Positions 20,266-42,270 of a stretch of DNA of 57,194 nucleotides are shown piece by piece (within the stretch, counting starts at the first letter, position 1; every line of letters starts with the position of its first letter). The DNA is from a virus (lineage: Duplodnaviria > Caudoviricetes): positions 1 to 57,194 of the IMG/VR virus record IMGVR_UViG_3300011116_000623; one strand, written 5' to 3'. A model generated the notes under the pieces. The model was not told the origin of the DNA, ran no database searches, and was given only the letters and a program-made list of their open reading frames with translations. The position numbers were made by a program, and so were the translations under genes.

Positions 20266-20514
20266 ATGTCTATAAAAAGATTAGTCCCTCTTAATGCATT
20301 AGAATTAACTACGAATCCAACAAATGCACGACGTGGTGATATTTATTATAATACTGTTGTCGATGAACTTCGTGTATACGACGGTACAACTTGGACGCCA
20401 GTAGCAGTAGCAGGAGAACTAGCAGATCATCTACATACATATGATGGTGCAATTTATTCTGTAGGAAACATTACATATCCAATGGATCCCGTTATTGATG
20501 GAGGTACTCCATAA
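20266..20514 (+). CDS. small fibre-associated protein
   Basis: GDIYYNT..DELRVYDGTTW motif. Confidence 0.6.
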   Translation: MSIKRLVPLNALELTTNPTNARRGDIYYNTVVDELRVYDGTTWTPVAVAGELADHLHTYDGAIYSVGNITYPMDPVIDGGTP

Positions 20515-23500
20515 TGGCTACTAGTTATCCTGGTTCTTTAGATAATTTTACAAATCCAACCTCTACCAGCCCAATAAATAGCCCGTCCCATGCAGACCAG
20601 CATTCAAATGCTAATGATGCAATTGAGGCTATTGAAGGTGAATTAGGAACTAATCCAAAAGGCGCTAAAGCAACGGTCAAGGCTCGTTTAGATGATGTTG
20701 ATACTGCAATTGCACTTAAAGCACCTATTGCATCTCCAACATTTACAGGCACTGTAACAATCCCAGCAGGCTCAGCAATCACTGGTGTGCCATATCTTGC
20801 TACTGCTAATACTTTTACTGGTGGCGTTCAGCAAATTACAACCGCAAGTGATGCAACTGTTGGTTTAATTCTTAAACGTGGAACTTCAGGACAAACTGCA
20901 AATATTTTTGAAATAAAAAGACAAGATAACAATAACTATGTCTTTGTTGATGCAGCGGGATTTTTACAGGCACAATCCAGAGGGTTAGTAACAAATACGC
21001 AAGTAGGTGGAGGAACTTCCTTTACGGTTCAAACTGGATTTGCAAGTTCAATTCCTCTACTTGTAAAAGCAGCAGCCTCCCAAACTGCAGACCTGCAACA
21101 GTGGCAGGATAGTGCTGGGAATGTGTTGGCAAGTTTATCTCCTGTAATTTCTTCTAACGTAAGTCTTAAATTTACAGATGCATATTCTTGGAGTATAAAC
21201 TGGGGAAGTAGACCAATACTGTCAACTGCCTCTGGATACCTTACTATAACTCCTTATGACGATTCACGAATTGCATTAACAGTCAAGGGCTATGCCTCTC
21301 AAACCGCCAATCTCCAGGAATGGCAGGGCTCTGGTGGAAATGCATTAACCGTTATAGATGCTTATGGAGCGTTGTATTTAAAAGATACTGCAATGATTGC
21401 ACCAGCCGCAAATTGGGCAGCGGATAGGTTTGCACCTGGTGGATTAACCATTATAAATAGAGGAACTGCTTCACAATTACCATTTGGTGTTCGTGGCGCT
21501 GCCTCTCAAACTGCTAATTTACAAGAGTGGCAGAACTCTGCTGGGACTGTGGTGGCAAATATTAAATCAGATGGGGCATTTAAAACTGGAATATTACAGA
21601 CAGGTCAATTTTATACACTTACAGATACTGGCCCATATCTACTTTCAGACCAATATGGTTGGAGTTTAATAAATAGAAACATAGTTGAAACCAATATTTT
21701 TACAATTAAAGGTATGTCTGGTCAAACTGGAAACCTCCAGGAATGGCGAAACAGTGCTAATACAGTGTTGGTTAAAATTGCTGCAGATGGAAGTACTACC
21801 TTTGCTTCACCAATCGTAGGCTTTGTTGGAAATTCTGGCTCATATTCTTCTACCGCCGTATCTGGCTATAATATAATCCATTTAAGCCAAGGAATGATTC
21901 TTATAAATAGCCAAACTGGCGGAGATTATAATCTGGCTACAAATGCCTATTATAACTCAGGATGGAAATATTTTGAAAGTACTGGCTCAACTCTTATAAA
22001 TTTTGGTAACGGAAGATTTGATTTTAATACTGCTTCATCTGGAACCGCTGGAAACGCAATAACTTATACAAGTAAAATGATTATTGCAAACAGTGGAACT
22101 GTTACTATTAATGGATTTGGTGCAGGTTCTCAAGGTTTAATCGTCAAAGGCGCCGCATCACAAACTGCCAACTTGCAAGAATGGCAGAATAGTGCTGGGA
22201 CAGTTATAGCAAACATTACACCTGCTGGAAAAATAGCAATGAAACATATTAACGGCATAAGCGGAGATATGTTAAGTTTGGGCTCTAATGGTGCATCTGA
22301 TATATTGGTCGTAGGATATGACAACATATCAGCCGCAACATATATTAATGGTGGAAGTTATGGTCCAATTCAGGTTCAACTAAACTCTGCAGCCAATGGA
22401 AAATTTGTAATCAAAGGCGCAGCCTCACAAACTGCAGACCTACAACAATGGCAGAACTCAAGCGGTACTGTGTTGGTAAAAATAAATTCAACAGGTCAAA
22501 TAACCTCTTTGGGTAGTGACCATTATTTTAGTTCTAGTGCTGCATATCGTCCAAATATACATATTACAAATACTACTGCTGATTCAAATGGTTCATATAT
22601 TTTATTTGAAAAATCTAGGGCTGGTTCAGTAGTTGTTGCAAATGATGTTCTCGGAGTTCTTAATTTTACAGGATTTGATACTGCTACGTATGCTGGTTCA
22701 GCAATAATTTATGGTGTTGCTGAAGGAACATTTTCTCCAACATCTCGTCCTGGTAAATTAGTATTTGCAACAGTTCCAAGTGGCAGTACAACTATGACAG
22801 ATAGAATGACTATTGCAAACAGTGGAACTGTTACTATTAATGGATTCGGTGCAGCAGCACAAGGTCTCATCATTAAATCCGCTGCCTCTCAATCTGTCAA
22901 TATTTTTGAAGTTCAAAATTCTGGCGGATATCCGATGGTATATGTTGATGCTTACGGAGCATTAGTAGCACGAGCATCGGGAATGTATGTAGATTCTGGT
23001 TATTCAAGTGGGATTGGTTTGCAAGTTCGTGGCGTAGCCTCACAAACTGCTGACCTACAACAATGGCAGAATAATGCTGTAACGGTGCTAGCTAAAGTAA
23101 ATAATTATGGTGGCGCTGAGTTTATTGACTTAAAAGTTGGAACAACATCTTCTTTAGGTGTATTAAGCGTTACTCCAGGCTTATCTTCACAACTTGGCAT
23201 TATAGTTCGTGGTAGAGCCTCTCAAACTGCAGATTTGCAGCAATGGCAAGATAGTGCTGGTAATGTAGCAGCAAGTATAAATTCAGGTGGAAGTTTAAGT
23301 CTTTCTAGAAGTTTATACACAAGCGCATCACTAGGAGTTTGGGCTTCAGTAAATGCCGACCCTCAAGGCGGTTCTACTGGAAATGCACTAACTGTTCAAA
23401 CATATAACACAACAAGTAAAGGTATTGTAATCGTAGGACAAGCCTCTCAGACCGCTAATCTGCAAGAATGGCAGAATAGTTCTGGAACTGTGTTGGCTTC

Positions 23501-25025
23501 CATATCTTCAGCAGGTAAATTAACCTCTGCAGTTGATGCAAGTATTAATGGTCTCACATTTGGTTTAGGTGCAAGTGCAGTTTCAAGCAATGTTGCAGCA
23601 GGTTCAAATGCGTTGGCAACAAATAGCACTGGTTTAAACAATTCCGCACTTGGCTATCAGGCTCTTTATCTTAATACAACAGGCGCTGGGAATTCTGCAT
23701 TTGGTTACATCTCGTTAACAACAAATACTTCAGGGTATAACAATTCTGCTTTTGGAACGCAGTCACTTACTGGTAATACTACAGGAATAAATAACACCGC
23801 TATTGGAGCGTTTGTTCTTAAGAGTAACACAACAGGTAGCGATAATTCGTCTTTTGGTATTAATTCGCTCTATACAAATACAACTGGGGCTGAAAATACT
23901 GCAATTGGGGCCAATAGTCTTTATTTAAATACAATAGGCATAGGCAACTCGGCGTTTGGAAAAAACTCTTTATATTCCAATACAACAGGCTCATCCAATG
24001 TTGGAATTGGTTATAGCAGCATCTACGCAAATACAACTGGAAGCAATCACGTTGCAGTTGGGTATCAGGCACTGTATAGCAACACCAGCGGAATAGAAAA
24101 CTCTGTTCTTGGTTATCAAGCGCTATACGCCAACACAACGGGTTCTGGAAATACAGGATTTGGAACTGCTGCTTTATATTCTAACACGGGTGGCTATAAC
24201 AATACTGCTGTTGCTTCAAAAGCGTTGTACTCGAATACTAATGGCATTCAGAATGTTGCAATTGGTCAGAGGGCGCTCTATACAAATACAACTGGCGGAA
24301 ATAACACAGCAATTGGTATGCAATCTGGATATCTAAATGTAACTGGTTCATCATCTGTGTTTATAGGCTATCAAGCAGGTTACAATGAAACAGGCTCAAA
24401 CAAACTTTATATTGCAAACACTGATACCGCCACCCCACTTATCGGTGGAGACTTCTCTGCTAAGACTTTAACAGTTGCTGGTAATGCAGCTGTAGTTTCA
24501 CAGGCTACTGGAACTCCTGTTCTTATTGTTAAAGGAACTTCTGGACAACAACAATATTTTTCAATTCAAGATTCAAGCGGATCGGCAGGTATATATGTAG
24601 ATCAATATATGCAAATGATTCACGCTACAAATACTTATTTTAATGGAATATATAATAATTCTGGAAATTGGTCTATTAATAATTCTGGAAGTTTAAGTAT
24701 TAAACAAATAGCTTCTAATATATCATCTACTGTTTCTATAAATACCGCCTCAACAATAGATACAGTTGCTCTTTCATCATTTACAAGTATGGAATATACA
24801 CTTTCAATTAAGCAGGGATCCAAGATTAGAAGCTCTAAGGTTCTTGTTCATACCGACGGAACTTCTGTGGACTCTACAGAATACGGAATTATGGAAATGG
24901 GAGGGGGAATCACAGGAATCCTAGTAACAGCCTCAGTATCTAGCACAAATGCTATTTTACAAGTAACAATTACAGATGCAGCTACTACAAATGCCACAGT
25001 TAAGTTAATTAAAACAATGTTATAA
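20514..25025 (+). CDS. giant modular fibre/adhesin-like protein 1 (1503 aa)
   Basis: About 9 canonical and 3 degenerate SQTA(N/D)LQ(E/Q)WQ repeats, plus a block of 17-aa N-x-A-x-G-x-x-AL-x-x-NTTG repeats. Confidence 0.8.
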   Translation: MATSYPGSLDNFTNPTSTSPINSPSHADQHSNANDAIEAIEGELGTNPKGAKATVKARLDDVDTAIALKAPIASPTFTGTVTIPAGSAITGVPYLATANTFTGGVQQITTASDATVGLILKRGTSGQTANIFEIKRQDNNNYVFVDAAGFLQAQSRGLVTNTQVGGGTSFTVQTGFASSIPLLVKAAASQTADLQQWQDSAGNVLASLSPVISSNVSLKFTDAYSWSINWGSRPILSTASGYLTITPYDDSRIALTVKGYASQTANLQEWQGSGGNALTVIDAYGALYLKDTAMIAPAANWAADRFAPGGLTIINRGTASQLPFGVRGAASQTANLQEWQNSAGTVVANIKSDGAFKTGILQTGQFYTLTDTGPYLLSDQYGWSLINRNIVETNIFTIKGMSGQTGNLQEWRNSANTVLVKIAADGSTTFASPIVGFVGNSGSYSSTAVSGYNIIHLSQGMILINSQTGGDYNLATNAYYNSGWKYFESTGSTLINFGNGRFDFNTASSGTAGNAITYTSKMIIANSGTVTINGFGAGSQGLIVKGAASQTANLQEWQNSAGTVIANITPAGKIAMKHINGISGDMLSLGSNGASDILVVGYDNISAATYINGGSYGPIQVQLNSAANGKFVIKGAASQTADLQQWQNSSGTVLVKINSTGQITSLGSDHYFSSSAAYRPNIHITNTTADSNGSYILFEKSRAGSVVVANDVLGVLNFTGFDTATYAGSAIIYGVAEGTFSPTSRPGKLVFATVPSGSTTMTDRMTIANSGTVTINGFGAAAQGLIIKSAASQSVNIFEVQNSGGYPMVYVDAYGALVARASGMYVDSGYSSGIGLQVRGVASQTADLQQWQNNAVTVLAKVNNYGGAEFIDLKVGTTSSLGVLSVTPGLSSQLGIIVRGRASQTADLQQWQDSAGNVAASINSGGSLSLSRSLYTSASLGVWASVNADPQGGSTGNALTVQTYNTTSKGIVIVGQASQTANLQEWQNSSGTVLASISSAGKLTSAVDASINGLTFGLGASAVSSNVAAGSNALATNSTGLNNSALGYQALYLNTTGAGNSAFGYISLTTNTSGYNNSAFGTQSLTGNTTGINNTAIGAFVLKSNTTGSDNSSFGINSLYTNTTGAENTAIGANSLYLNTIGIGNSAFGKNSLYSNTTGSSNVGIGYSSIYANTTGSNHVAVGYQALYSNTSGIENSVLGYQALYANTTGSGNTGFGTAALYSNTGGYNNTAVASKALYSNTNGIQNVAIGQRALYTNTTGGNNTAIGMQSGYLNVTGSSSVFIGYQAGYNETGSNKLYIANTDTATPLIGGDFSAKTLTVAGNAAVVSQATGTPVLIVKGTSGQQQYFSIQDSSGSAGIYVDQYMQMIHATNTYFNGIYNNSGNWSINNSGSLSIKQIASNISSTVSINTASTIDTVALSSFTSMEYTLSIKQGSKIRSSKVLVHTDGTSVDSTEYGIMEMGGGITGILVTASVSSTNAILQVTITDAATTNATVKLIKTML

Positions 25026-25059
25026 TTAAACTATATATTATGGGGAAATGTGAACCAAT

Positions 25060-28000
25060 ATGAGCGATAAAAACTTTAAAGTTAAAAACGGTATAGACTC
25101 AACAGGTCCCGTTACAATTACCACTCCCAATACATCAACAACTGGATTGGTTATAAATGTTCCAGTTGGAGGAAAAGCTGTTGAATTTTTAAGAAATGGT
25201 TCTTATGTTGGAGCGATTGACGATTGGGGTGGACTTAATACTACTCAAGGAATTAATGCTGCTGGATTTTGGTTTACAAGATCTCCAGGAATAGAAGCAC
25301 AATCATTTTTTTGGGCGGGATCATCTATAAGATCAGCAGCAGGTTTTGGTGGAACAAGTACTGGAACAAACCCAGTAATATATATATCTTCTCATAGTAC
25401 AGGTACAAATGATTTAACTCAATGGCTTAAACCAGACAATACAATTGTTGCAAAAGTAGACTATCTTGGAAATATAACAGCAAATGATTTAACGTTAGCT
25501 GGTAATTTAACTGTAAATGGAACAACTACAAATCTTAATTCTACTAACCTTATTATAGAAGATAAAAATATTATTATTGCAGATGTTGCAACACCAAGTG
25601 ATACTACCGCCGATGGAGCGGGAATTACAGTAAAGGGAGCCACGGATAAAACATTTAATTGGGTACAATCAACAAAGTCATTTACAACATCTGATCCATT
25701 AATTATAAATAATACATCAACAACAACAGTCCCATTGATAGCAAAAGGCTATGCCTCTCAAACTGCTAATCATTTTGAAGTTCAAGATTCTGCAGGAAAT
25801 AAAATGTTTGTTGTTAATCCGCCTGCTGGTACATTACAACCCTTAGAATATTTTTTTGTTAGACCAGGAGGCACTGGCGGAACTGCAACTATTGGAACAA
25901 ATTCATATTCATTTAGAGTAGTTGCTGCGAACGGTAATTCTGTAAGCTTTGGAACCCCAGGTGGTGGAACTTCATTGCAAGTTTTTACAAGTGATACATT
26001 TAATAGATATAAAATTATTGGATCTGGTACAGGAATAGCTCCTACATTTACAACTGATGGTAATGATGCAAATGTAAATATGTATGTTACTGCAAAAGGT
26101 GCAGGTAAAATTGGAATTAATACAACATCTCCAACTGGATATGTTCATGCTGTAAGTTCTAGTTCTTCAACCGTAGGTTTAATTGTTGAAGGCGCTTCTG
26201 GACAAACATCTACAAATATATTTGAAGTACAAAGGGCAGGTGGTGGAGACCCATCATTTACCGTTTCTCATAATTACATTGACTTAAATAGAAATACCAC
26301 CGCAGCAGCATCTATGACAGTTTATGGTGCTAATTCTAATCAAACTCCATTACAGATAAAAGGTCGTGCTTCTCAAACTGCTGATTTAGTATCAATTCAA
26401 CAATCATCAGGCTTTGCTCTAGCTAGATTTGATGCAAACGCAAATATTGTTTTAGGTAATACAAATGTTGATTCAAATAACTATTTATCATTTATAAAAG
26501 CAGGCGGTGCTGTTGGAGGAAATGCTGGAATTAGATTCGGTAATGATGCTGATGGAACAAATCAACATACATTAACAGTTAATACATCAAATGCTGATTT
26601 AACGTTAGAACATAAAAATGTTAATTCTAGATTTATAGTTAAAGGCGCCACTTCCCAAACTGCCAACCTGCAAGAGTGGCAAGATAGTGCTGGTAACCTG
26701 CTGTCAGCAATTAGAAGCGATGGCGTATTAAGAGTTTCACAAATTATTTCAAAGGAAAATTACAGTTCTTATTTTAGTTTTTCAAGTGGTAGTCCGATTC
26801 AAGTAAATCCGCTTACCAGCGGAACTGTTGGTTTAGTTGTAAAAGCAGTAACCTCCCAAACTGCCAACCTGCAGGAGTGGCAGAATAGTAGCGGCGGTGT
26901 AGACACTGCCGTAACTTCAACAGGAAGACTATCTGTTCGTACTACACTTGCAAATGCTGGATTAAATGTTGGAGCACCATCTGCGGCAACTGTCGCTGCA
27001 ATCATTCGTGGTGTAGCCTCACAAACTGCTGACTTATTACAATTACAAAATAGCGCTGGAACTGCAATTGCTTTAATTAATGCATCAGGAGATTTTGTAG
27101 CAAGAAATATTTATGCTAGCGCAAGTGCGAATTACTATACAGCACAAGTTAATATTCTTCCTGATTCTGCAGCAAAAGCAGGAATAGTTATTCGTGGTGT
27201 AGCCTCCCAAACTGCTAATCTTCAGGAGTGGCAGAACAGTTCTGGTACAGTGTTGGCGAAGGTTGATAGTTCTGGAAGCATTACATCAAATATATCTTTT
27301 GCAGTAAACAACACAAGCGGCAACGCAATATTTTCGGTAAGCCCGTATTCAGAAGTTTCTATACCAGGTGTAATATATGCTGGCCTATATGCAACTGCAA
27401 AATTAAATCTTTTAACAAATAATACTTCTATGATTGGTGCAATCATTCGTGGGCAAACCTCTCAAACCGCAGACCTTCAGCAATGGCAGGATGGTGCTGG
27501 AACCGTTGGAGCATATGTAGCCTCGGATGGAAGTTTTATTACTCGTGGTTCACTTATTGGTGGTTCATATTCTGGAAGTGCTTTATTTGGAGTTCAAAAC
27601 TATTCAACAACTCAAGTTGTAGCAGTAGTCAAAGGCGCCGCCTCACAAACTGCCAATCTTCAAGAATGGCAAAATTCCGCAGGTGGAGTACTTAGTTACA
27701 TAACCGCATCTGGAGCATTGCGTGTAAACAGTTCATTCGGTGGAACTCAAGCAGCAATTACTGCGGGCTCTGCAGCAACTGTAGGCGTAATAGTACGTGG
27801 TGCAGCCTCCCAAACTGCCGACTTGCAACAGTGGCAGGATAGTGCTGGAACTGTACTTGCTAGAGTGTACAATAATGGTGTTCTTTCTGTTGGCTCTCTT
27901 TATGCCGCAACTGGCGACTTGTCTGTTGCGTATGGTGGCTATTTTGGTGGCGGTACTGCTGGTGGATATATTGGCGCTGCTGTTTCCGTAATTCCTTGGA

Positions 28001-30730: not shown

Positions 30731-33700
30731 TGGCACTATCAGTATCTACCTCACCAGAATTATCAACATTAAAATTTTCTGATCAAGGAACTTTGATTCT
30801 TTCATCTTCTGAAACAAAAAAAGGTAATTCTGCAATAAATAGTTCTGATGTTTTTCAAATTTTTGCAACATATGCATTGAGCACTGTTAGAGTTTCGGTA
30901 GACCCATATGGAGGATTTTGGTCAAGAACATATATTAATGCTTCTCCTGATTGGAGTGGTGGAACTCCATTATATGTGAGTGCAATAAGTGGTCAAACAG
31001 GAGATTTAACAAAATGGCAAAATTCTGCTGGTACAGTGCTTGCAAACGTTGACGCTAATGGAAAAATAGCAGCACCAATATTTCAATCAACCGTTGCGGG
31101 AACCGCTTATATTGTAACTGGTTCTAACAACAACGCTATTAGAGTTCAAACTAATGGAACTACAAATGTTGGTTTAATTATTCGTGGTGAAGCCTCTCAA
31201 ACTGCAAACCTACAGGAGTGGCAGAATAGTGATGGTACGGTACTTTCTAAGATTGATGCTAATGGATTAATTTCTCTGCCTGGAGGTTCTTGGCATTTAA
31301 TGAATGGCCAACAAACTTGGTATAAAAATAGTACTTCTTTTTATCAAAAAGGACCAAGCCATACATTTAGACGACAAAGTGATGATACTGATTTGTTTAC
31401 AATTGGTGGTAATGGAAATACTTCTGTTTTACTTCAATCAGCATCTGCAGTTGGTTTAATAGTAAAATCTGCAGCATCACAAACTGCAGATTTGCAGCAA
31501 TGGCAAAACAGCGCTGGGTCAGTCACAGCAAAAGTTTCATCTTCTGGAGCAATTTCTTCTAGTGCAGGAGGATTTTTTGGCTCAACAGATGCTGCAGCAA
31601 GTGGCGTAAATTATCTTGCAGTAAGAGGGTGGGCCGCAGACCATGTTCCATTCGCTGTAAAAGGATTCACTGCACAAACAGGAGACTTAACAAGATGGAT
31701 AAATGATGCTGGGACGGTGCTTACATCCATATCTTCAGCAGGTAAATTAACCTCTGCCGTTGATGCAAGTATTAATGGAATTACTTTAGGACGAGGCGCA
31801 GGTAATATTTCAACCAACATAGCAAGTGGTGGTGGCGCCCTACTTTCTAACACCACAGGTATTTACAACTCAGCATTTGGTGAGAACGCCCTAGGTCTCA
31901 ACACCACAGGTAGTAACAACACAGCAAGTGGTGTGGCCCTACGCTCTAACACCACAGGTAGTAACAACACAGCAAGTGGTGGTGGCGCCCTATATTCCAA
32001 CACCACAGGTAATGACAACACAGCATTTGGTGTGGACGCCCTACTTTCCAACAACATAGGTAATTACAACACAGCAAGTGGTGAGAGCGCCCTACGCTCT
32101 AACACCACAGGTAGTTACAACACAGCAAGTGGTTTGAGCGCCCTACGCTTGAACACCACAGGTAATAACAACACAGCACTTGGTTTCGGTGCAGGTTACA
32201 GCAATACAACTAGCGGCGCCTCTGTGTTTATAGGCTATCAAGCGGGTTACAATGAAACAGGCTCAAACAAACTTTATATTGCAAACACTGATACCGCCAC
32301 CCCACTTATCGGTGGAGACTTCTCTGCCAAGACTCTAACCTTTGCTGGTAATGCAACTGTAGTTTCGCAGGCGGCAGCAACACAAGGTTTAATCGTCAAA
32401 GGAGCCGCCTCACAAACTGCTGACCTGCAGCAATGGCAAGATGTCTCAGGTTCTACTAGGGTGGCAGTAAGTTCTTATGGAACATTATTTTCATACACAG
32501 AAGCCGTATTCAGTAATCAACTTAATGGAAATGGAACTGCACTTCTTGCTAAAACAAATAATGCTGGTGGAAAGCCTCTAATCGTTAAAGGTGCTGCATC
32601 ACAAACCGCTAATCTAACAGAATGGCAGGATAGTGCTGGTACTGTACTTGTTAAAGTTGCTGCAGATGGTGTAGTTACGGCTGGAAATTTAATTACAAAC
32701 ATTTTTAGCACACAATCATTTGGCACTGGTTCTTTATCTTTTTATGGAATTGCTTACAATGGATTTTCAAACCCTTCTGGTGTGACAACTTTACCTACAT
32801 TAGTAATTAAAGGTATTGCCTCTCAAACAGCCAACCTGCAGGAATGGCAGGATAGTGCTGGTACGGTACTTGCATCCATCTCTTCAGCAGGCAAACTAAC
32901 CTCTGCTGTTGATGCAAGTATTAATGGAGTTACTGTTGGTATGGGGGCTGGTTCAGCCTCAACCAATACAGTTACTGGGCTTAATGCACTTATTTCAAAT
33001 ACTACAGGCACTTATAACACAGCATTTGGAAATCAATCTCTTCAACTTAATACATCTGGAACTCAAAACACTGCTTTTGGACAGGGGGCTTTATATAATA
33101 ACAGAACTGGTTGGTATAATACTGCTTTTGGACAAGGGGCTTTATATAATAATAATACTGCATATAGCAATACCGCAATAGGTGCAAATGCGCTAGTTAA
33201 CAATTCTAGTGGCAGTAATAATATTGCAGTTGGAATTCAAAGTTTATTAGGCAATAATTCTGGAGGTAATAATATAGGATTAGGGTCCGATGCTGGATAT
33301 TCAAATGTAACTGGTTCGTCAAATATATTTATTGGCCATCAAGCAGGATACTACGAAACAGGCTCAAACAAACTTTATATTGCAAATTCTAATACCACCA
33401 CCCCACTTATCGGTGGAGACTTCTCTGCCAAGACTCTAACCTTTGCTGGTAATGCAACTGTAGTTTCGCAGGCGGCAGCAACACAAGGTCTCATCATCAA
33501 AGGTGCCGCCTCCCAAACTGCAGACTTACAGCAATGGCAGGACAGTGCAGGTACGGTATTAGCAAAAATTATGAGCAATGGTTCACTATTTGTTAATTCT
33601 ACTGGAACAGCCAATGACCCAATAACAATCCAGAGAGCATCAGCAACTAGATTTAAAGTTGACCCATATGGTAACGTATTTGCAGTTGCGCTAACTGCTG

Positions 33701-34263
33701 GAAATGTGGTTAATTCAATTGCAGGAACAGCTGCTGGAATATACGCAACTTCAGCATCTACTATTGGCGCAGTTATTCGTGGTGCCGCTTCCCAATCTGC
33801 CAACCTACAAGAATGGCAGAATAGCAGTGGTACTGTTTTATCATCTATTACTAATAATGGATTTTTAAATACTCCAGCAATATTAGAAAATCCAACAATT
33901 TCAGCAACAGCAGCAACTGGAACAATTAATTATGACTTGCTAACAAATAAATCAGTTACATATTATACATCTAATGCTTCCGCTAACTGGACATTAAATA
34001 TTCGTGGAAATTCATCAACCACACTTGATTCATTAATGGCGGTTGGACAATCTTTAACAATAGCATTTTTAGTAACTCAAGGATCTACTGCATATTATCA
34101 ATCTGGATTACAAATTGATGGAACATCTGTTACTCCAAAATGGCAGGGAGGCGTTGCTCCAACATTTGGAAATGCTTCTGGAGTAGATTCTTATTCTATT
34201 ACAATTATGAAAACTGCCAGCGCAACATTTACAGTATTTGAATCTCAAACGAGGTTTGCATAA
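30730..34263 (+). CDS. giant modular fibre/adhesin-like protein 3 (1177 aa)
   Basis: About 9 repeats and two NTTG beta-roll-type blocks. Confidence 0.8.
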   Translation: MALSVSTSPELSTLKFSDQGTLILSSSETKKGNSAINSSDVFQIFATYALSTVRVSVDPYGGFWSRTYINASPDWSGGTPLYVSAISGQTGDLTKWQNSAGTVLANVDANGKIAAPIFQSTVAGTAYIVTGSNNNAIRVQTNGTTNVGLIIRGEASQTANLQEWQNSDGTVLSKIDANGLISLPGGSWHLMNGQQTWYKNSTSFYQKGPSHTFRRQSDDTDLFTIGGNGNTSVLLQSASAVGLIVKSAASQTADLQQWQNSAGSVTAKVSSSGAISSSAGGFFGSTDAAASGVNYLAVRGWAADHVPFAVKGFTAQTGDLTRWINDAGTVLTSISSAGKLTSAVDASINGITLGRGAGNISTNIASGGGALLSNTTGIYNSAFGENALGLNTTGSNNTASGVALRSNTTGSNNTASGGGALYSNTTGNDNTAFGVDALLSNNIGNYNTASGESALRSNTTGSYNTASGLSALRLNTTGNNNTALGFGAGYSNTTSGASVFIGYQAGYNETGSNKLYIANTDTATPLIGGDFSAKTLTFAGNATVVSQAAATQGLIVKGAASQTADLQQWQDVSGSTRVAVSSYGTLFSYTEAVFSNQLNGNGTALLAKTNNAGGKPLIVKGAASQTANLTEWQDSAGTVLVKVAADGVVTAGNLITNIFSTQSFGTGSLSFYGIAYNGFSNPSGVTTLPTLVIKGIASQTANLQEWQDSAGTVLASISSAGKLTSAVDASINGVTVGMGAGSASTNTVTGLNALISNTTGTYNTAFGNQSLQLNTSGTQNTAFGQGALYNNRTGWYNTAFGQGALYNNNTAYSNTAIGANALVNNSSGSNNIAVGIQSLLGNNSGGNNIGLGSDAGYSNVTGSSNIFIGHQAGYYETGSNKLYIANSNTTTPLIGGDFSAKTLTFAGNATVVSQAAATQGLIIKGAASQTADLQQWQDSAGTVLAKIMSNGSLFVNSTGTANDPITIQRASATRFKVDPYGNVFAVALTAGNVVNSIAGTAAGIYATSASTIGAVIRGAASQSANLQEWQNSSGTVLSSITNNGFLNTPAILENPTISATAATGTINYDLLTNKSVTYYTSNASANWTLNIRGNSSTTLDSLMAVGQSLTIAFLVTQGSTAYYQSGLQIDGTSVTPKWQGGVAPTFGNASGVDSYSITIMKTASATFTVFESQTRFA
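31837..32190 (+). repeat. 7 tandem in-frame units of about 51 bp
   Basis: Unit GCCCTA-nnnnnn-AACACCACAGGT-nnTnAC-AACACAGCA-nnT-GGT-nnnnnn. One unit is 48 bp. Confidence 0.9.
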
Positions 34264-34264
34264 A

Positions 34265-34795
34265 ATGCCAGCACTGGCATCATTTGCGGCAGGTTCGGCA
34301 AAAAGTTACGGTCAATTTAAATTTAGACCACTTCCAGCAAGATATTTTATATTACAAGTATTAGATATTAGAAGTCCATCTACTCAAAATATAGTTCAGA
34401 TATCTGAATTTAACTTAATGAATGTTTCTACAAGATTAACGGCATCTACTTATTATAACTGGAATTTATCTTTTACATCTGCCGCTAACTTATCAGATGC
34501 CTCAAATTCTCCAACAAATGAAGAGCCATACAGAGCAAACGATGCAGATGTTAATACAAAATGGTTAGATTTTAGAGGAACGGGCGGAGGATTATGGATT
34601 GATTTAGGTTCTAATCAAGAATCTACTGGTTATCAATGGTATACTGCAAATGATGCCGATTGGAGAGATCCAAAGACATGGAGAGTTTGGGCGAGTCAAG
34701 ATGATAAAACTTGGTTTTTATTAAGTGATATATCTGGATTTACAGCACCATCTGCTAGATATACTTATGCAGGATCCTGGGATTGGATAAAATAA
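34265..34795 (+). CDS. discoidin / galactose-binding-like domain protein
   Basis: DADVNTKW and YQWYTAND...RDPKTWRVWAS. Start MPALAS follows the upstream stop. Confidence 0.6.
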   Translation: MPALASFAAGSAKSYGQFKFRPLPARYFILQVLDIRSPSTQNIVQISEFNLMNVSTRLTASTYYNWNLSFTSAANLSDASNSPTNEEPYRANDADVNTKWLDFRGTGGGLWIDLGSNQESTGYQWYTANDADWRDPKTWRVWASQDDKTWFLLSDISGFTAPSARYTYAGSWDWIK

Positions 34796-34859
34796 TTTAT
34801 TGCCTCAGAACAGTTATTTTGATATACTACAAGTAAATAAATTATAGGATAGGGTAAAT

Positions 34860-37800
34860 ATGACAAGTAGAATCTTATTAAGAAGAGGAACGGCAGCTCA
34901 ATGGGCTTCCGCCAACCCCATTCTTGGATCAGGCGAACTTGGCGTAGAAACAGATACCCTTAAATTTAAAATAGGTAATGGAACTAGTACTTGGACTCAA
35001 CTTACTAGTTATGCAAATATAACACCATCTGATTTAACTTCAGCTATTAATGGTTTAATTAATGCCGCCCCCTCTGCTTTAGACACATTAAATGAATTAG
35101 CGGCGGCAATCAATAATGATTCATCTTTTTCAACTACAGTAAATAATCTTTTAACAGGTAAGGTATCTAAATCTGGTGGAGATACAATTACACCAGCAAC
35201 TACATCAACAACTGGATTGACTCTTGCATCTCCCGTAGGTCAAACAGCACATTTGCTTTATGCAAGTGGTGGTACAAGAATACCTGCTGGTGGCAACTAT
35301 CTTGTTACCCCAGGATTAACAGTTAGTTACACTTCTGATTTTAATGCAGGGGCTGCAAATATAACCCCTATCTATGTAAAAGGTGCCGCCTCCCAAACCG
35401 CTAACCTTCAGGAGTGGCAGAACAGTGCAGGTACTTTAGTTGCAAGTATGGATGTTAGTGGAAAGTTAATAGTACCAACACTTCGTGGACCAGCTGGTAA
35501 TGTAATTACATTAGGTGTTGATGGCAACCCTTACTCACTATCTATTTCTGCTACACAGTTTGATTCTTATGGACCAGTACCCTGGCGCCCATATAACGCA
35601 AGTATGGTTGGGTTTATTGTTAAAGGACAAGCCTCCCAAACTGCAGACCTGCAACAGTGGCAGAACTCTGCTGGCGATACTTTGGGATTTGTAGATTCAG
35701 ATGGAAAGGCGTACTTCTCACATTCTAGCACAAATACTAACTTATTTGGAGTACACGGAAATTTAAGATTAAGAAATAGAAACAATACAACTAATAATTA
35801 CTCTTCAATAGACGCACAGTCGGCTAGTGGAATTATATCTTCAGGTATTTTATTTATAAATTCTGACCATACTAACTCATACGGAAGAATAGTTTTTGGA
35901 ACTCGCTCTGCCGCTGGATTTAATTCCAATGCATTTGCAATAAATTCTAGCGGAGGAATTTCAACTACTTTAATGTCGGCTTCTAGTGTTGGTTTAATTG
36001 TCAAGGCCGCTGCCTCCCAAACTGCCAACCTGCAGGAGTGGCAGAACTCAAGCGGGACAGTATTGGCAAATGTTGATAGTGCTGGAAACTTTAAAGCGGC
36101 AAGTATTGCAACAGCAAGATACATTGCAGATTTAACTAGTACAACTCCATATTTAGACTTTAGTTCTAACAAACTATTAGTCAATTCACGCAATGCTTCT
36201 TATGTGGGCTTTATAGTTCAAGGTTCTGCTTCGCAAACTGCAGACCTTCAAGAGTGGCAAGATAGTGCTGGTACTGCACTAACAAAAATAGATAATAATG
36301 CTGGTTTCTATGCTCAATATATTGAAGCAAAAAATACTGCTGGAGTTTTAGTTAGCGGAGAATCTCAAATTAAAATAGCAAGTCCAGATGGACTAAAAGA
36401 TATTCGTTTTTGGAATAGAAATGATGCTGGTGGTCTATATTATTATAATTCTAGCGGTGGTTCTAAAAATATATTAAGAATTGCTCATTCTACCGATCCT
36501 AGAATTGTCACACAAACCTGGCAAGATTTTACATCTGGTAGTTCAGCAAATTATGGTGGAAGAGTAAATATTGATACATCAATAACTACTGCAATTGGTA
36601 TGGTCATTCGTGGCGTAGCCTCCCAAACCGCAAATTTGCAAGAATGGCAAGACAGTTCAGGAACAATACTTTCTAAAATTGACGTTTCTGGAAACATAAC
36701 AGCTCCTTCATATAATTTATCTGACTCAAAATATTTATTAAGAAAAACAATCAAGAAAACTGTAGATCCAGCTCAAAATGCTGTAGCAAATAATACATAC
36801 GATTTATTTGATATGAACTTTTCTTCATCATTGCAAGGAACATTTTATATTCAAGCAAGTATTAGAGGTGGCGGCTATGGACAAAATTTAACTTATTCTT
36901 TACCTGCAACATATGTAATGGACTGGATAAATCTATATCCAATTACAAATCCATTTACAAACAGCACCACTTGGGTAGATTTAACTCCATTAACATTTTC
37001 TCCAAGACATTTGATGACAAATGATTATTTTAAATTACAGGCGAAAGTTAATGCAAATCAAATATCATTTAGAATTAAATTAACAGGCACATTAACTGGA
37101 GCCCCAGTATTTGATATTTATATTCAACATAGCGAAGAATTTGCTAATTCTACAATTACAGAATTAAATACAACTGGAACAGATTCTACTACATCCAATG
37201 TAATGCCTAACTTTTTATCATCAAAAGCGGGATTATCTGCAATATTTAATCCAATAACTTTATATTCAAATTCTGCATCTAATATACCGTTAACTATAAA
37301 AGGATTTGCTTCTCAATCTGCTAACCTTCAAGAATGGCAAAACAGTAGCGGTACTGTGTTGGCTAAGGTAAATCCTAATGGTGTATTTCATACCTTTGGG
37401 TCTGTTTATACTCCTTATATTCAACCAGCATCACCAACTGGCGTTAATGCATTTATTGCATTAGACAATACAACGGTTCTCGTAGATGGTTGGTCTGCAT
37501 CTACTGTAAAACTCACCGTTAAAGGTTACGCCTCACAAACTGCTAACCTGCAAGAATGGCAGAATAGTGCTGGCACTATATTAGGTGCTATCGTAGCAAA
37601 TGGAGATGTTTTATTTCCTAGTAAACTATTTAACTCAAGATATGGAAGATTCGGTACTGATGGCGCATATACTGACGACACAGTACTAAGAATTACCAAT
37701 ACATCTGCTTCTTTTGTACCATTAATTGTTAAAGGTATTACAAGCCAAACAGCAAATCTTCAACAGTGGCAAGATAGTACTGGGACGGTATTGGCTAAGG

Positions 37801-39350
37801 TTGATGCTAGTGGAAACTTAACAGCACCTACAGCAACACTTACAATTCCAGCATCAGGCACAACACCTGCAATAGTTGCCAAAGGTGAATCAACTTATGC
37901 AACAAACATTGCAGAGTTTAGAGATACTGGCAACAATCTTGTAACCAGAGTCACGGGATATGGTTCATTGATTACAAGTTCGTTTGCAGTTGGTCCTAGC
38001 CCTTCGTCCTTCACTGGGTTTGCTTCGACTACGGCAAGTATTAAAACTCTAAGTGCCAGTTTTCCAGGACTCATTATCCAAGGAGCATCTTCACAATCTG
38101 CCAACTTGCAAGAATGGCAAAGAAGCGATGGTTTTGTTTTATTAAATGTTTCTAAAGATGGAGATGTAACTGCTGGTAGTGGTTCATCAACTGCAATTCG
38201 TTTTAGATATTTTGACGGAATCAATATTACTGGAACATATTGGGATACTGTAGAAACAAATTCTGCAACATTTATTGGTCGTTCCACAACTGCTACTACT
38301 ATGGTTGTTCGAGCCGCAGCCTCTCAAACTGCTAATCTTCAGGAATGGCAAGTATCATCAGGTGCGATTGTGGCACAGGTAACAACATCTGTAGTTCAGA
38401 TTGGACCAAATGATGCTTATCCAGCACGTTTAATGCTTGGTGGAGCCGATACCTCTGCTTTACTAAGCATTTCTACACATAGCACAACAGAAGTTGGCGC
38501 TGTTATACGTGGTAAAGCCTCCCAAACCGCTGACCTACAACAATGGCAGAATAGTGCTGGTAGCGTAGTTGCTAGTATTGCTAATACTGGTTCGTTAACA
38601 ACTGGCAATCTAACTTTAGGAACAAATGGCTTAATTATTGACGCTTCTTCAGCGAGCCCTTATATTGCCTTTGGGTCAAACACGATAACTATTAATACTC
38701 GGAACGCTGCATACAAAGGTTTAATTGTAAAAGGCGCAGCCTCTCAAACTGCCAACCTTCAGGAGTGGCAATCTTCTTCTGGTGAAGTAGGCATGTTGTT
38801 TAATATGGGAAATGCAGGAGACCCAAGTACTTTAGGATTTTCAGTTTCAAGGGCTTGGGGAATTAAATGGGGTGCTGAAAAAATTCTTAGCACCGACGGT
38901 GGCAGTCTAATAGTTACTCCATACACAACAGATAGAAAAGTATTAATTGTCAAGGGCGTAGCATCCCAAACCGCTAATCTTCAAGAATGGCAAAATTCAA
39001 GCGGTACTGTCCTTACTAAAATAAACTCTGCTGGAGAATTAACAACCCCAAATATTGCTTTAGCAGCCCTTGGTGGTATCTATGGTGCTGGCGGGCCTTA
39101 CATAACATTAAATTATACGGATGTTAGAATTGTAACAGCAGGTCTTTCAGTAGGTGCTACATCAGTTACCCCATCTGCTCAATTGCAAGTTACCAACAAT
39201 GTTGCAGGTACAACCGCAATGATTGTCAAAGCCGCCGCCTCCCAAACAGCAAACCTGCAAGAATGGCAAGATAGTAGCGGTTTAGTAATCTCCGCTATGG
39301 GTCCTTATCAAAATCTTGGACTTGGTGGCGCTCCTAACAACCTTTCATAG
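34860..39350 (+). CDS. giant modular fibre protein 4, N-terminal part (Mtd-N-like N-terminus)
   Basis: RILLRRGTAAQW..ANPIL..GELGVETDT.KFKIG.G, then AP.ALDTLNELAAA..ND..F and about 14 canonical repeats. Ends at a TAG in mid-module. Confidence 0.8.
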   Translation: MTSRILLRRGTAAQWASANPILGSGELGVETDTLKFKIGNGTSTWTQLTSYANITPSDLTSAINGLINAAPSALDTLNELAAAINNDSSFSTTVNNLLTGKVSKSGGDTITPATTSTTGLTLASPVGQTAHLLYASGGTRIPAGGNYLVTPGLTVSYTSDFNAGAANITPIYVKGAASQTANLQEWQNSAGTLVASMDVSGKLIVPTLRGPAGNVITLGVDGNPYSLSISATQFDSYGPVPWRPYNASMVGFIVKGQASQTADLQQWQNSAGDTLGFVDSDGKAYFSHSSTNTNLFGVHGNLRLRNRNNTTNNYSSIDAQSASGIISSGILFINSDHTNSYGRIVFGTRSAAGFNSNAFAINSSGGISTTLMSASSVGLIVKAAASQTANLQEWQNSSGTVLANVDSAGNFKAASIATARYIADLTSTTPYLDFSSNKLLVNSRNASYVGFIVQGSASQTADLQEWQDSAGTALTKIDNNAGFYAQYIEAKNTAGVLVSGESQIKIASPDGLKDIRFWNRNDAGGLYYYNSSGGSKNILRIAHSTDPRIVTQTWQDFTSGSSANYGGRVNIDTSITTAIGMVIRGVASQTANLQEWQDSSGTILSKIDVSGNITAPSYNLSDSKYLLRKTIKKTVDPAQNAVANNTYDLFDMNFSSSLQGTFYIQASIRGGGYGQNLTYSLPATYVMDWINLYPITNPFTNSTTWVDLTPLTFSPRHLMTNDYFKLQAKVNANQISFRIKLTGTLTGAPVFDIYIQHSEEFANSTITELNTTGTDSTTSNVMPNFLSSKAGLSAIFNPITLYSNSASNIPLTIKGFASQSANLQEWQNSSGTVLAKVNPNGVFHTFGSVYTPYIQPASPTGVNAFIALDNTTVLVDGWSASTVKLTVKGYASQTANLQEWQNSAGTILGAIVANGDVLFPSKLFNSRYGRFGTDGAYTDDTVLRITNTSASFVPLIVKGITSQTANLQQWQDSTGTVLAKVDASGNLTAPTATLTIPASGTTPAIVAKGESTYATNIAEFRDTGNNLVTRVTGYGSLITSSFAVGPSPSSFTGFASTTASIKTLSASFPGLIIQGASSQSANLQEWQRSDGFVLLNVSKDGDVTAGSGSSTAIRFRYFDGINITGTYWDTVETNSATFIGRSTTATTMVVRAAASQTANLQEWQVSSGAIVAQVTTSVVQIGPNDAYPARLMLGGADTSALLSISTHSTTEVGAVIRGKASQTADLQQWQNSAGSVVASIANTGSLTTGNLTLGTNGLIIDASSASPYIAFGSNTITINTRNAAYKGLIVKGAASQTANLQEWQSSSGEVGMLFNMGNAGDPSTLGFSVSRAWGIKWGAEKILSTDGGSLIVTPYTTDRKVLIVKGVASQTANLQEWQNSSGTVLTKINSAGELTTPNIALAALGGIYGAGGPYITLNYTDVRIVTAGLSVGATSVTPSAQLQVTNNVAGTTAMIVKAAASQTANLQEWQDSSGLVISAMGPYQNLGLGGAPNNLS

Positions 39351-40157
39351 TTGGCAGTTTCAAATAGAAGTGCTACCAATATTGGCGCAGTAATTAAAGG
39401 CGCCCCAAGCCAGACTGCCAACTTAACTGAATGGCAGGATAGTAGCGGTACTATATTAACAAGAGTAACAAGTAGTGGAGTTTTGGGCACTTCTGCTGGA
39501 GTCTATTCCCCGTATTATCAAGGTCATAATGGTGTAGGCGGAGCCATTGCATTTGCAAACGCAACTGCAATAACAATTACCCCTCAGTCCGCATCCGTTG
39601 CATCTTTGATTGTCAAAGGTGCTGCTTCACAAACCGCTAACCTTCAGGAATGGCAAAATAGTAGTGGTACGGTACTGGCATTTGTAGATAGTTCAGGAAA
39701 TATAAATACAACAAGCAAACTTATTGCTGGTAATATCTTAGATGTAACACAGAGTTCTGCTACAGCAACTGGTTATGGGACAAGCGTTGTTGGAGATAAA
39801 ATTGCTTTATTTGGTTCAACTTCTCTTCCATATTACTATGGTTTTGGTGTTCAAAATTCAAGACTTGTTGCATATGTTGATTCTGGCCAAGCGTTTGCTG
39901 TTAGAGTTGCTTCCTCATCTGGAGCAAAATCATCAGGTTCTGATTCTGTAATTTTATATGGTACAGGTGCAGGTTCATTCCTACTTAACTCAGCATCTAC
40001 CGTCGGCCTCATCGTCAAGGCTGCCGCCTCCCAAACTGCAGACCTACAACAGTGGCAAAACTCAAGCGGAACAGTGCTTGCAGAAATTACAGCATCTGGA
40101 TCATTAGAATTAAACGGAAAAGATATAGAATTAATGAATATTATGGGAGCATTTTAA
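39351..40157 (+). CDS. in-frame continuation of fibre protein 4 beyond TAG
   Basis: Same frame, begins right after the TAG, no obvious SD, 3 more repeats. Confidence 0.7.
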   Translation: MAVSNRSATNIGAVIKGAPSQTANLTEWQDSSGTILTRVTSSGVLGTSAGVYSPYYQGHNGVGGAIAFANATAITITPQSASVASLIVKGAASQTANLQEWQNSSGTVLAFVDSSGNINTTSKLIAGNILDVTQSSATATGYGTSVVGDKIALFGSTSLPYYYGFGVQNSRLVAYVDSGQAFAVRVASSSGAKSSGSDSVILYGTGAGSFLLNSASTVGLIVKAAASQTADLQQWQNSSGTVLAEITASGSLELNGKDIELMNIMGAF

Positions 40158-41930: not shown

Positions 41931-42024
41931 GCCGATTGCCCAATATATATATATTTGGTATAATAATGATATTCCATGATAAATATCATGGTTTTACGTA
42001 AAATACATGAAGGAGAAAAAAAAT

Positions 42025-42264: not shown

Positions 42265-42270
42265 ATAAAT

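Follow-up and report, generated by a model that had tools for sequence, protein, structure and literature searches.

The window analyzed here is a viral contig from IMG/VR, linear and 57,194 bases long (IMGVR_UViG_3300011116_000623; completeness estimate 53%). It contains an array of very long genes in which copies of one conserved protein repeat, the unit, alternate with variable segments that we call cassettes (Table 1). As the contig also carries genes for a portal, a prohead protease, an HK97-type capsid, and a tape-measure protein, it belongs to a tailed phage. We propose that the array encodes four long homotrimeric virion fibres of an uncultured tailed phage from freshwater, and that cassettes are exchanged singly at the unit, which would be a conserved joint of the fibre. 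We put the probability of this reading at about 0.7. The repeat-bearing fibre genes are numbered 1, 2, 4, and 5; gene 3 is repeat-free, and gene 5 corresponds to the fourth giant gene of an earlier account of this DNA that was made from its letters alone (the sequence-only reading).

A loose regular expression finds 45 units in the window (9, 10, 9, and 14+3 across genes 1, 2, 4, and 5, where the last pair of numbers refers to the two parts of gene 5 on either side of an in-frame stop codon, discussed below). We built a 42-column profile from these 45 units and searched all six frames of the window with it. At a threshold of independent E-value (i-E) < 0.01, the profile finds 48 units (11, 11, 9, and 14+3). 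Two further units have an i-E of 0.03-0.05, and the rest of the window holds nothing better than i-E 2.7 in any of the six frames. The conserved unit is about 42 amino acids (aa) long, with the consensus AxxxGLIVKGxASQTANLQEWQNSAGTVLxxxxxxG and the core ASQTANLQEWQNSAGTVLA. Q14 is invariant, and S13, T15, A16, L18, W21, Q22, S24, and G26 are at least 90% conserved. Unit starts are a median of 74 aa apart (interquartile range 67-117, from 139 intervals in three phages), and in the window the 48 units alternate with 44 cassettes.

The sequence-only reading had described about 42 near-canonical copies (roughly 9, 7, 9, and 17; about 50 with degenerate ones, counted by eye) of a repeat of about 22 aa, in four giant genes with unrelated termini and some whole inserted domains, and had inferred that a module family has spread through these genes. 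Its copy number was close to ours, but the 22 aa are only the core of the longer unit. The spread of the family holds up: the 48 units lie in four genes whose N- and C-termini have no mutual similarity at E < 1e-5 once the units are masked. Whole inserted domains are there as well (a domain that we call NTTG, with one copy in gene 1 and two in gene 4, as well as a 186-aa domain in gene 5). The picture of four giant genes needs amending. There are indeed four repeat-bearing genes, but the fourth is split into two open reading frames (ORFs) by a TAG codon, and a 713-aa gene (gene 3) and a 185-aa ORF also lie within the array.

Over 990 pairs of units, the mean identity is 45% for amino acids and 53% for nucleotides (nt), and exact in-register runs reach at most 34 nt, with a median longest run of 9 nt per pair. 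Where two units have the same residue, they use the same codon 44.7% of the time, versus 40.9% expected from codon usage. Units of the same gene are no closer to each other than are units of different genes (nucleotide identity of 0.537 versus 0.532). Within the 63-nt core, different units are on average 63% identical, with a median longest exact run of 8 nt; 8.3% of core pairs share at least 15 exact bases and 2.6% share at least 20. The direct repeat families in bases 20000-40500 consist of cores that are 60-81% identical and of the repeats of the NTTG domain, and the closest long pairs are 79-81% identical. Because the synonymous codons are near random, the nucleotide identity is low, and the exact runs are short, we conclude that the units are old and are kept by selection on the protein, and have not been homogenized by recent gene conversion.

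The cores do have some features in common as DNA. The words TCNCAAACTGC and TGGCA are near-universal in the units, and in frame. Also, the GC content at third codon positions (GC3) is 0.32 in the core, compared with 0.16 (unit flanks), 0.19 (cassettes), and 0.20 (other genes), and codons that are rare elsewhere (GCC, TCC, ACC, CTG, GTG, and CAG) are enriched at fixed core positions (unit positions 10-30). The raised GC3 of the core could reflect biased gene conversion, ancestry, or translational pausing.

Within the window, only one pair of cassettes is at least 60% identical, and 29 of the 44 cassettes have a match at that level in other proteins, with many different partners. We compared the window with two contigs, G001 (28.8 kb) and G002 (36 kb), that have complete arrays between matching flanking genes. 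High-scoring segment pairs (HSPs) of at least 120 nt and at least 70% identity cover 85-100% of the flanking genes versus just 14% (G001) and 23% (G002) of the array. The shared parts of the array are the termini of genes 1, 2, and 5, the inserted domains, and isolated cassettes. For example, gene 1 is 87-93% identical to the first fibre gene of G001 and G002 at aa 1-112 and 79-87% identical at aa 1379/1404-1503, but the middle differs; and aa 1-214 of gene 2 are 72-73% identical to gene b of both contigs. The repeat-bearing ORFs are of 1454, 1797, 305, and 1641 aa in G001 and of 2064, 1536, 1027, and 1936 aa in G002, and the repeat-free genes between them differ in size. In four related contigs, the number of units is 45, 56, 12, and 0.

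Such isolated cassettes recur in other places. A cassette of gene 1 (aa 932-965) is the same as aa 330-363 of gene a of G002 (34/34 aa). Residues 846-879 of gene 5 form a cassette with 97% identity to the gene-2-like protein of G002 (aa 739-772), and another gene-5 cassette (aa 1107-1142) is 83% identical to aa 157-192 of the 305-aa gene e of G001. A longer piece of gene 4 (aa 727-915) is 81% identical to aa 518-706 of gene c of G002. Database proteins also include hybrids: P0027 combines segments of gene 2 (93%) and gene 4 (79%), and in P0062 an N-terminus of the gene-2 type is fused to the C-terminus of gene 1 (88%).

To put numbers on this sharing, we used 225 proteins (after removal of four that are identical to proteins of G001 or G002), with 2,394 units and 2,166 cassettes. 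The cassettes form 1,216 clusters, of which 881 are singletons. We defined runs as collinear cassette pairs with at least 85% identity and at least 90% coverage. There are 1,019 such runs, which are pairwise counts and not independent events: 922 have one cassette, 58 have two, and the longest has 13. In 854 of the runs the ordinal position differs between the two proteins. The sequence-only reading had suggested clustering the cassettes and comparing their order in relatives; the arrangement is mosaic.

If there were no shuffling, then the cassettes would be fast-evolving loops that are inherited vertically, and the differences would come from divergence plus the gain and loss of units. Termini and some blocks are colinear (aa 1-679/742 of gene 2 are 64-73% identical to database proteins P0007-P0010), and the other 165 of the 1,019 runs keep their ordinal index. 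However, vertical inheritance does not account for runs of a single cassette at different indices, for cassettes that are 83-100% identical in different genes or positions with unrelated neighbours, or for the hybrid proteins. We consider it extremely improbable.

The exchanges have a preferred grain and preferred edges. At the level of bases, identity in the shared blocks turns on at about ASQT of the preceding unit and turns off between QEWQ and TVLA of the following unit. The block of gene 1 that includes the 34-aa cassette (Table 1) starts at position 11 of one unit and ends at position 30 of the next, and its flanks are unrelated. Near the end of gene 5, bases 40026-40157 are 80-91% identical to three related contigs (L089, L092, and L093), and these HSPs start at unit positions 12-14. 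More generally, we counted the unique ends of HSPs with at least 80% identity and at least 100 nt among 10 arrays. Core positions 7-32 hold 57 of the 118 ends, versus 19.7% of the sequence (binomial p 2.9e-12), although HSP ends tend to run into any conserved core, which can inflate the count, and these too are counts of pairs. Positions 9-13 of the unit hold a cluster of left ends, and positions 18-30 a cluster of right ends.

The cassette runs avoid this bias. Just 68 of their 1,617 internal ends (4.2%) continue for at least 8 aa into the next cassette, and several of these 68 are near-full matches that are narrowly below the threshold. Cassettes make up 69% of the length, yet so few ends reach into them that the exchange boundaries must lie in the conserved unit; although the counts are of pairs, the effect is large. 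Thus, both the HSP ends and the run ends bear out the suggestion in the sequence-only reading that breakpoints map to the repeat. Its broader suggestion that the repeat could be an in-frame crossover point stands insofar as blocks start and end inside the unit; it does not extend to guidance by DNA homology, given that the cores are 63% identical, and some boundaries lie outside the repeat. Its further suggestion, that the shuffling could proceed without a diversity-generating retroelement (DGR) or an invertase, agrees with our scan, in which neither is seen among ORFs of at least 150 aa (on a contig that is about 53% complete).

An important question is whether the unit guides the crossovers or is only a structural joint. 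If it is only a joint, then random or illegitimate recombination would produce junctions of all kinds, selection would remove those that are off register, and the clustering of boundaries would be a survivor effect. The near-random synonymous sites and the short exact matches between units fit this explanation, as do the boundaries at the edges of other conserved domains. Also, the predicted intertwined trimer (see below) would not bear out-of-register joints. On the other hand, in-frame microhomologies (TCNCAAACTGC and TGGCA) in nearly all units, and ends that lie inside the core and not at its edges, count against a pure survivor effect. The rise in GC3 that is confined to the core fits repeated repair of heteroduplexes, though ancestry or codon selection could explain it too. 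We consider a pure survivor effect to be unlikely. Instead, crossovers may depend on the core's short microhomologies, as opposed to arising at random and then being filtered by selection. Some guidance of this kind is favoured by the universal microhomologies and by the raised GC3 of the core, whereas the low overall identity speaks against classical homologous exchange.

A stronger version of the proposal is that the core, beyond its part in the fold, is a population-wide recombination joint (an in-frame microhomology, TCNCAAACTGC...TGGCA, with locally raised GC3), by which thousands of freshwater phages take single cassettes from a shared library of well over 1,000 types and diversify their trimeric fibres without a dedicated enzyme. 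We think that this is possible but doubtful.

Several observations weigh against our proposal as a whole. First, at 63% identity between cores, classical homologous recombination between non-orthologous units would be inefficient. Second, not every exchange is of a cassette. Bases 1-10048 of contig L009 and bases 3410-13457 of contig L012 are 99.86% identical, and then the two become unrelated 18 codons into the homologue of gene 2, directly after MSDKNFKVKNGIDANG. (This pair shows a recent swap of all of the sequence distal to a conserved N-terminal peptide.) Similarly, the likeness of gene 1 to its relatives stops at aa 41-107 and restarts at aa 1403. Thus, conserved terminal domains also act as exchange points, as they do in many phage fibre genes. 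Third, the relative with the closest upstream gene (90% aa identity), which is G004 (the contig behind L094; 81.5 kb and 75% complete), has no unit at all. The likeness of G004 to the window ends exactly where the upstream gene ends. Fourth, the array is upstream of the portal gene and not 3' of the tape-measure gene, which is the usual place for tail fibres, and some of the matching domains are annotated as head decoration or structural proteins.

The last of these points suggests that the products might not be host-recognizing tail fibres. They could be head or neck filaments or decorative filaments, whose variability would serve adherence to particles or mucus, or the evasion of host-made binders. 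The array has nucleotide-metabolism genes on one side and the portal gene on the other, and does not follow the tape-measure gene; the upstream gene and the N-terminal motif of gene 2 match proteins that are annotated as head decoration; PHROGs 6002 and 23837, which match the NTTG domain, are filed under head and packaging; and the unit is also found in giant ORFs from bins of Patescibacteria and Planctomycetes. In contrast, the N-terminus of gene 5 matches Mtd_N, tail collar fibre, and tail fibre families, the C-terminus of gene 2 resembles a putative tail fibre, and the annotations that point to the head are database labels, not experiments. We regard a role away from host recognition as a real but doubtful alternative, and we expect that the fibres sit on the tail and that the cassettes face outward, where they would contact structures on the surface of the host.

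Another concern is that the array, or its order, might be an artefact of assembly, with co-occurring strains misjoined at the repeats. All of the data are metagenomic contigs, and related contigs often stop within the array (as do L009 and L012). Among the listed public contigs, none spans the array (3.6 kb is the longest listed piece within it), and 19-43% of the public contigs that align to it continue into unlike sequence, which is expected if mosaic relatives co-occur. However, the longest exact in-register repeat, at 34 nt, is too short to mislead assemblers that use longer words, and the reading frames run without a break for 1,100-1,765 codons. The gene order between matching flanks agrees in three independent contigs. 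Contigs from two other studies match the array in pieces of 465-1,359 nt with 0-5 differences (most have none), and the array is covered in each of its 30 bins by Logan contigs from four runs. Also, false joins would be expected in identical cassettes, whereas the boundaries fall in the diverged cores. So, misassembly of the array is very unlikely, but the full order of cassettes in the window comes from a single contig. (Apparent joints between distant units in the public contigs, with 27 of 30 listed ends in cores, were discounted: the sides are of 21-60 nt at 90% identity and are probably the cores of other phages.) Some parts of the array have low contig depth in single runs, to which we attach no interpretation.

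Why would the unit be a joint? The repeat family, its conservation at the protein level, the sharing of cassettes, and the placement of the boundaries are seen directly by comparing sequences, whereas the trimer and the role of the core as its interface are model-based. We modelled three copies of aa 1143-1398 of gene 5 (bases 38286..39053, + strand), which comprise four units and three cassettes, using an in-register alignment of 28 four-unit segments from the window phage and its relatives. The prediction reaches an ipSAE of 0.82 in 3/3 runs, versus 0.00 for the best of 3 controls, with contact agreement of at least 97% and a partner pLDDT (predicted local distance difference test) of at least 87. 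In a calibration, the 0.82 mark was reached by 20 of 30 proteins that were solved as pairs and by 1 of 23 that were solved as single chains. Since that calibration was made with two copies and different alignments, its counts are a rough guide for the trimer, whose alignment was self-built; this tempers the structural side of our proposal. Also, the modelled segment and the array proteins have no solved structure that is related to the unit by sequence (a search of the unit profile against PDB sequences gave only a chance match, E 2.6), so it is unlikely that the trimer passed because the method remembered a known structure.

The confident interface residues of the modelled segment are 8-24, 69-90, 142-164, and 217-238, which are the four unit cores. 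The tightest predicted contacts are between the LQEWQ strand plus the Trp of one chain and the GAVIR strand of another chain, which is at the position of GLIVKG. A full-length model of gene 2 as a monomer (AlphaFold2, or AF2, with a 13-row alignment) fails, with a pLDDT of 37.3, and shows a small three-stranded meander in each core. The trimer model supports an intertwined homotrimer in which the conserved unit would be the joint between chains, but it is not proof. It agrees with the idea in the sequence-only reading that the repeat is a structural joint.

Putting the predicted structure together with the pattern of exchange, we propose the following. Each fibre would have its own N-terminal anchor and its own C-terminal tip, with a shaft of modules of about 74 aa in between. 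A module would be one conserved beta unit plus one variable cassette, or occasionally a whole inserted domain, and the strands GLIVKG, NLQEWQ, and TVLAKI, along with the near-invariant Trp, would make the contacts between the three chains. As all of the joints would be alike in fold and frame, a recombination event that ends in two of the ~60-nt cores would leave the fibre in frame and in register. Single cassettes could then move between positions, between the four genes, and between phages across the population. The outcome would be a large common library of cassettes, and a hyperplastic island in an otherwise conserved genome.

The termini give some indication of what is anchored where. The N-terminus of gene 5 matches Pfam Mtd_N (PF18454, E 6.4e-13) and the PDB entry 9d93 'tail collar fibers gp4' (E 9.5e-5), and tail fibre PHROGs match aa 3-113. 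Genes 1, 2, and 4 have no match to a known N-terminal anchor of the tail-fibre type among Pfam, PHROG, or PDB sequences. A search with the N-terminus of gene 1 against phage records (by tblastn) gave one unannotated record. At the other end, aa 1029-1117 of gene 2 are 43% identical to a putative tail fibre of Pelagibacter phage Mosig, and aa 1046-1176 of gene 4 match PHROG 5906. The N-terminal domain of gene 2 contains a very widespread 80-aa motif (aa 135-214, bases 25463-25701), GNLTVNGTTTNLNSTNL[IV]IEDKNIIIADV...KGATDKT, for which 522 of 599 pattern matches in IMG/VR were confirmed. In L009 and L012, the motif also occurs mid-way in the first fibre gene, and it is present in cyanophage proteins that are annotated as head decoration or structural proteins. 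In the gene-2-like fibre of G002 (which is the same sequence as P0037), there is a precomputed match to Laminin_G_3. As this domain is also found in a 590-aa gene that is 3' of the array, lectin-like domains accompany the array.

Once the units are masked, the NTTG domain is the sole similarity among the four fibre proteins of the window. The copy in gene 1 is 44-60% identical to both copies in gene 4 and to the copies in G001 and G002. It accounts for three direct repeat families (D5, D6, and D9), whose copies are spaced by 51 nt, and it matches PHROGs 6002, 4636, and 23837, which are named virion structural protein or tail spike protein. The domain ends in a conserved segment, ...GSNKLYIAN..TPLIGGDFSAKTLT..., that runs directly into a unit. 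The 186-aa domain of gene 5 is 72-74% identical to aa 817-1002 of gene f of G001 and to aa 517-702 of gene d of G002. It is found in 20 of 223 fetched proteins (including gene 5 of the window), with 54-100% identity and with starts that range from 290 to 1646. In an AF2 model of this domain, residues 14-150 form a beta-sandwich with pLDDT of about 70-85 (58 overall). A Foldseek search of the PDB with this model found 0 matches at E <= 0.001; the best template-modelling (TM) score was 0.26, and no fold was assigned.

The stop codon in gene 5, which was read directly from the sequence, lies within a cassette and not within a unit. The ORFs on either side of it are in one frame. In G001 and G002, the orthologues of gene 5 are single ORFs of 1641 and 1936 aa, with matching N-termini (MSSKILLRRGTAAEW...) and C-termini (...ELMNIMGAY). 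Recoding of TAG throughout the genome was rejected: reading TAG as Q joins gene 5 to its tail only, and the ribonucleotide reductase and other genes stop at TAG. So, the TAG is a single nonsense codon, which may be a recent mutation, a variant of one strain, an error of assembly, or a site of local read-through. Two public contigs span the site (39264-40157 in run X1 and 38979-40013 in run X4), and each differs from the window by one letter; the DNA adjoining the TAG has 0 exact matches in IMG/VR and metagenome contigs. The last 268 aa of gene 5 have no close relative in IMG/VR, where the best is 43-51% identical.

The array is in a region between nucleotide-metabolism genes and the head genes (Table 1). 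IMG/VR has more than 583 relatives of the gene upstream of the array and 5 of the gene downstream. Gene 3 has a sole PHROG match (5313, of function unknown), no Pfam or NCBIfam match, no HSP of at least 120 nt and at least 70% identity to G001 or G002, and no relative in our IMG/VR relative search. The 185-aa ORF has no PHROG or NCBIfam match, and its hit to Pfam F5_F8_type_C_2 is below threshold (21 bits, versus a cutoff of 27.8). A 340-nt stretch (41930-42268), which follows the 369-aa gene in the window, is just upstream of the homologue of gene 5 in G001 and G002 (78-79% identity), and G002 has two tandem copies of the 369-aa gene. A single tRNA, tRNA-Asn, is encoded in the window.

Table 1. 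Coordinates of the array, its parts, and its neighbours in the 57,194-base window
Feature	Position	Strand	Remarks
Glycosyltransferase	14647-15633		5' of array
Class II-like ribonucleotide reductase	15721-17655		5' of array
476-aa gene	18825-20255		Adjoins array upstream; C-terminus matches a 'head decoration' PHROG
Repeat-and-cassette array	20514-40157	+	All units on this strand
Fibre gene 1 (1503 aa)	20514..25025	+	ORF; own N-terminal domain, 11 units, NTTG domain, own C-terminal domain
Gene 1 unit starts (first aligned residues)	20853, 21042, 21264, 21468, 21690, 22122, 22389, 22851, 23007, 23187, 23409; weak 24510	+
Exchanged block in gene 1	23216..23498	+	Core + 34-aa cassette + core; 89.4% nt identity to G002 over 283 nt
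NTTG domain, gene 1 (aa 1007-1331)	23532..24506	+	51-nt (17-aa) periodic repeats
Fibre gene 2 (1119 aa)	25060..28419	+	ORF; aa 1-214 form a conserved N-terminal domain; 11 units and a C-terminal domain of its own
Gene 2 unit starts	25720, 26164, 26338, 26626, 26821, 26983, 27169, 27424, 27607, 27772, 28006; weak 25405	+
Gene 3 (713 aa)	28416..30557	+	Repeat-free ORF within array, no units
Fibre gene 4 (1177 aa)	30730..34263	+	ORF; 9 units, two NTTG domains, own C-terminal domain
Gene 4 unit starts	30961, 31159, 31441, 31636, 32374, 32563, 32794, 33475, 33754	+
NTTG domains, gene 4	31759-32373 and 32908-33474	+	Tandem 51-nt (17-aa) repeats
185-aa ORF	34238..34795	+	Overlaps end of gene 4
Fibre gene 5, first part (1496 aa)	34860..39350	+	Mtd_N-type N-terminus, 14 units, inserted putative beta-sandwich domain
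Gene 5 first-part unit starts	35355, 35598, 35979, 36195, 36585, 37275, 37497, 37707, 38055, 38286, 38484, 38706, 38934, 39204	+
Inserted 186-aa domain, gene 5 (aa 618-803)	36711..37268	+	Mobile cassette
Exchanged block in gene 5	37333..37580	+	89.1% nt identity to a different gene of G002; unit positions 20 to 28
Exchanged block in gene 5	38089..38350	+	85.5% nt identity to small third gene of G001; unit positions 12 to 22
In-frame TAG	39348..39350	+	Separates the final 268 codons from the rest of gene 5
Fibre gene 5, last part (268 aa)	39351..40157	+	3 units (39372, 39591, 39993) and conserved C-terminus
369-aa gene	40496-41605		3' of array; no family
590-aa protein	42390-44162		3' of array; Laminin_G_3 domain
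Portal, prohead protease, and HK97-type capsid genes	44561-48606
HNH endonuclease gene	48676-49275		Between capsid and head-tail adaptor genes
Tape-measure gene	54025-57192		Extends past contig end

The unit is common in environmental sequence and nearly absent from curated resources. A search of 1.84 billion sequences with the unit profile found 10,336 cluster representatives at E <= 0.001, of which 4,297 are at 1e-10 and 1,268 are at 1e-30. In a search with gene 2, 999 proteins were found among 8,000 scored candidates. The 118 listed homologues besides the window's own all have units (median 11, maximum 23), and the names of all 120 listed proteins are 'hypothetical protein' or none. Pattern matches to the unit were confirmed for 360 of 375 cases in IMG/VR. 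The 3' part of the array occurs in public metagenomic runs from 7 studies of riverine, lake, aquaculture, and drinking-water samples.

By contrast, Pfam-A gives only a chance match to the unit that is below threshold (CSN7a_helixI, at most 25.6 bits versus a cutoff of 26), NCBIfam gives no match, and PHROG gives one weak match to a single unit (the 68-position phrog_31435, E 9.8e-5). Among 50,697 phage records, megablast finds no match to the array or to the head module, and tblastn with the last 268 aa of gene 5, which contain three units, finds none even at E <= 1. Gene 2 matches these records outside of its units only. Gene 5 matches 892 of them, and the 40 that are listed are all confined to the N-terminal 108 aa or less. 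A text search of 8.4 million papers for the unit core strings found no occurrence, and a literature search on cassette recombination in tail fibres surfaced nothing specific to the unit. In the ESM Atlas, unnamed viral clusters score 0.89-0.90, and bactofilin or hexapeptide-type clusters score 0.88, which is an unconfirmed lead.

The unit is also found outside of recognized viruses. Among prokaryote genomes (one per species), 116 of 132 pattern matches were confirmed. Many are in bins that are labelled Saccharibacteria, Peribacteria, Paceibacterota, other Patescibacteria, or Planctomycetes, and these include two complete Planctomicrobium genomes. The ORFs from bins with Patescibacteria or Planctomycetes labels are 1,000-3,400 aa long, have up to 11 units, and could belong to prophages, to phages that were binned with the cells, or to the cells themselves. 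If the core is a population-wide recombination joint, then Patescibacteria and Planctomycetes with similarly built giant proteins would possibly also draw on the common library of cassettes.

Phage receptor-binding fibres decide host range, and to our knowledge how uncultured environmental phages diversify their fibres is largely unknown. The plan of this locus is highly regular: each module pairs a conserved joint with a single exchangeable cassette, a pattern repeated about 48 times in a genome. The comparison with relatives shows that exchange at the joint proceeds by single cassettes. The 10,336 clusters, which have neither a curated family nor a structure, amount to a large uncharacterized class of putative virion fibres. 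If the trimer model is true, then the unit would be a natural portable scaffold. The locus could also mark recombination and strain turnover in freshwater viromes. And if the core is a recombination joint, then its effect would be comparable to that of DGRs or of antigenic-variation cassettes, but between genomes.

How does the array compare to other ways of varying a fibre? First, Mtd of the Bordetella phage BPP-1 is a trimeric, diversifying fibre protein that varies by adenine-directed point changes. Gene 5 begins with an Mtd_N domain, but the array varies by replacement of whole cassettes and not by adenine-directed point changes as in the target of the BPP-1 DGR. No reverse transcriptase is found by Pfam or PHROGs in the ORFs of at least 150 aa in the window (again, about 53% complete), and no template/variable pair that is near-identical except at adenines is found among the direct repeats in 20000-40500.

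Second, invertible fibre segments and shufflons (of the Gin, Cin, or Rci type) produce alternative fibre ends from a set of DNA segments. In the array, the units and genes are all on one strand, and the variation is between genomes rather than by inversion within one. Among the scanned ORFs of at least 150 aa, on a contig of that same completeness, there is no family of site-specific recombinase or invertase.

Third, gp34, the proximal long tail fibre of T4, is a long homotrimeric shaft of small domains in series, with a distinct anchor and tip. The array proteins are predicted to resemble gp34-type fibres in having a shaft of serial modules with anchor and tip domains, but their unit has no sequence match in the PDB.

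Finally, the adhesins of T-even phages offer the closest parallel in principle. According to PMC3157838 (which cites Tetart et al. 1996 and 1998), their short, highly conserved motifs form a structural core, the motifs separate hypervariable segments, and the recombination junctions lie in the motifs. As described there, gp38 is a small adhesin with 4 segments and 5 motifs. Effects on host range were shown for T-even phages. Like gp37/gp38 in that account, the array has conserved motifs that alternate with hypervariable segments, with junctions in or next to the motifs. No homology of the array proteins to gp37/gp38 is found among the Pfam, PHROG, NCBIfam, or PDB sequence matches. Unlike gp37/gp38 as they are presented there, the array comprises four proteins of 1,100-1,765 aa, with about 48 joints per genome; its joint is predicted to be a trimer interface; and exchange is usually of one cassette, between positions and between genes. 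Thus, the principle is known from the T-even adhesins, and what is new is the unit, its predicted role as the joint of a trimer, the scale, and the exchange of one cassette at a time.

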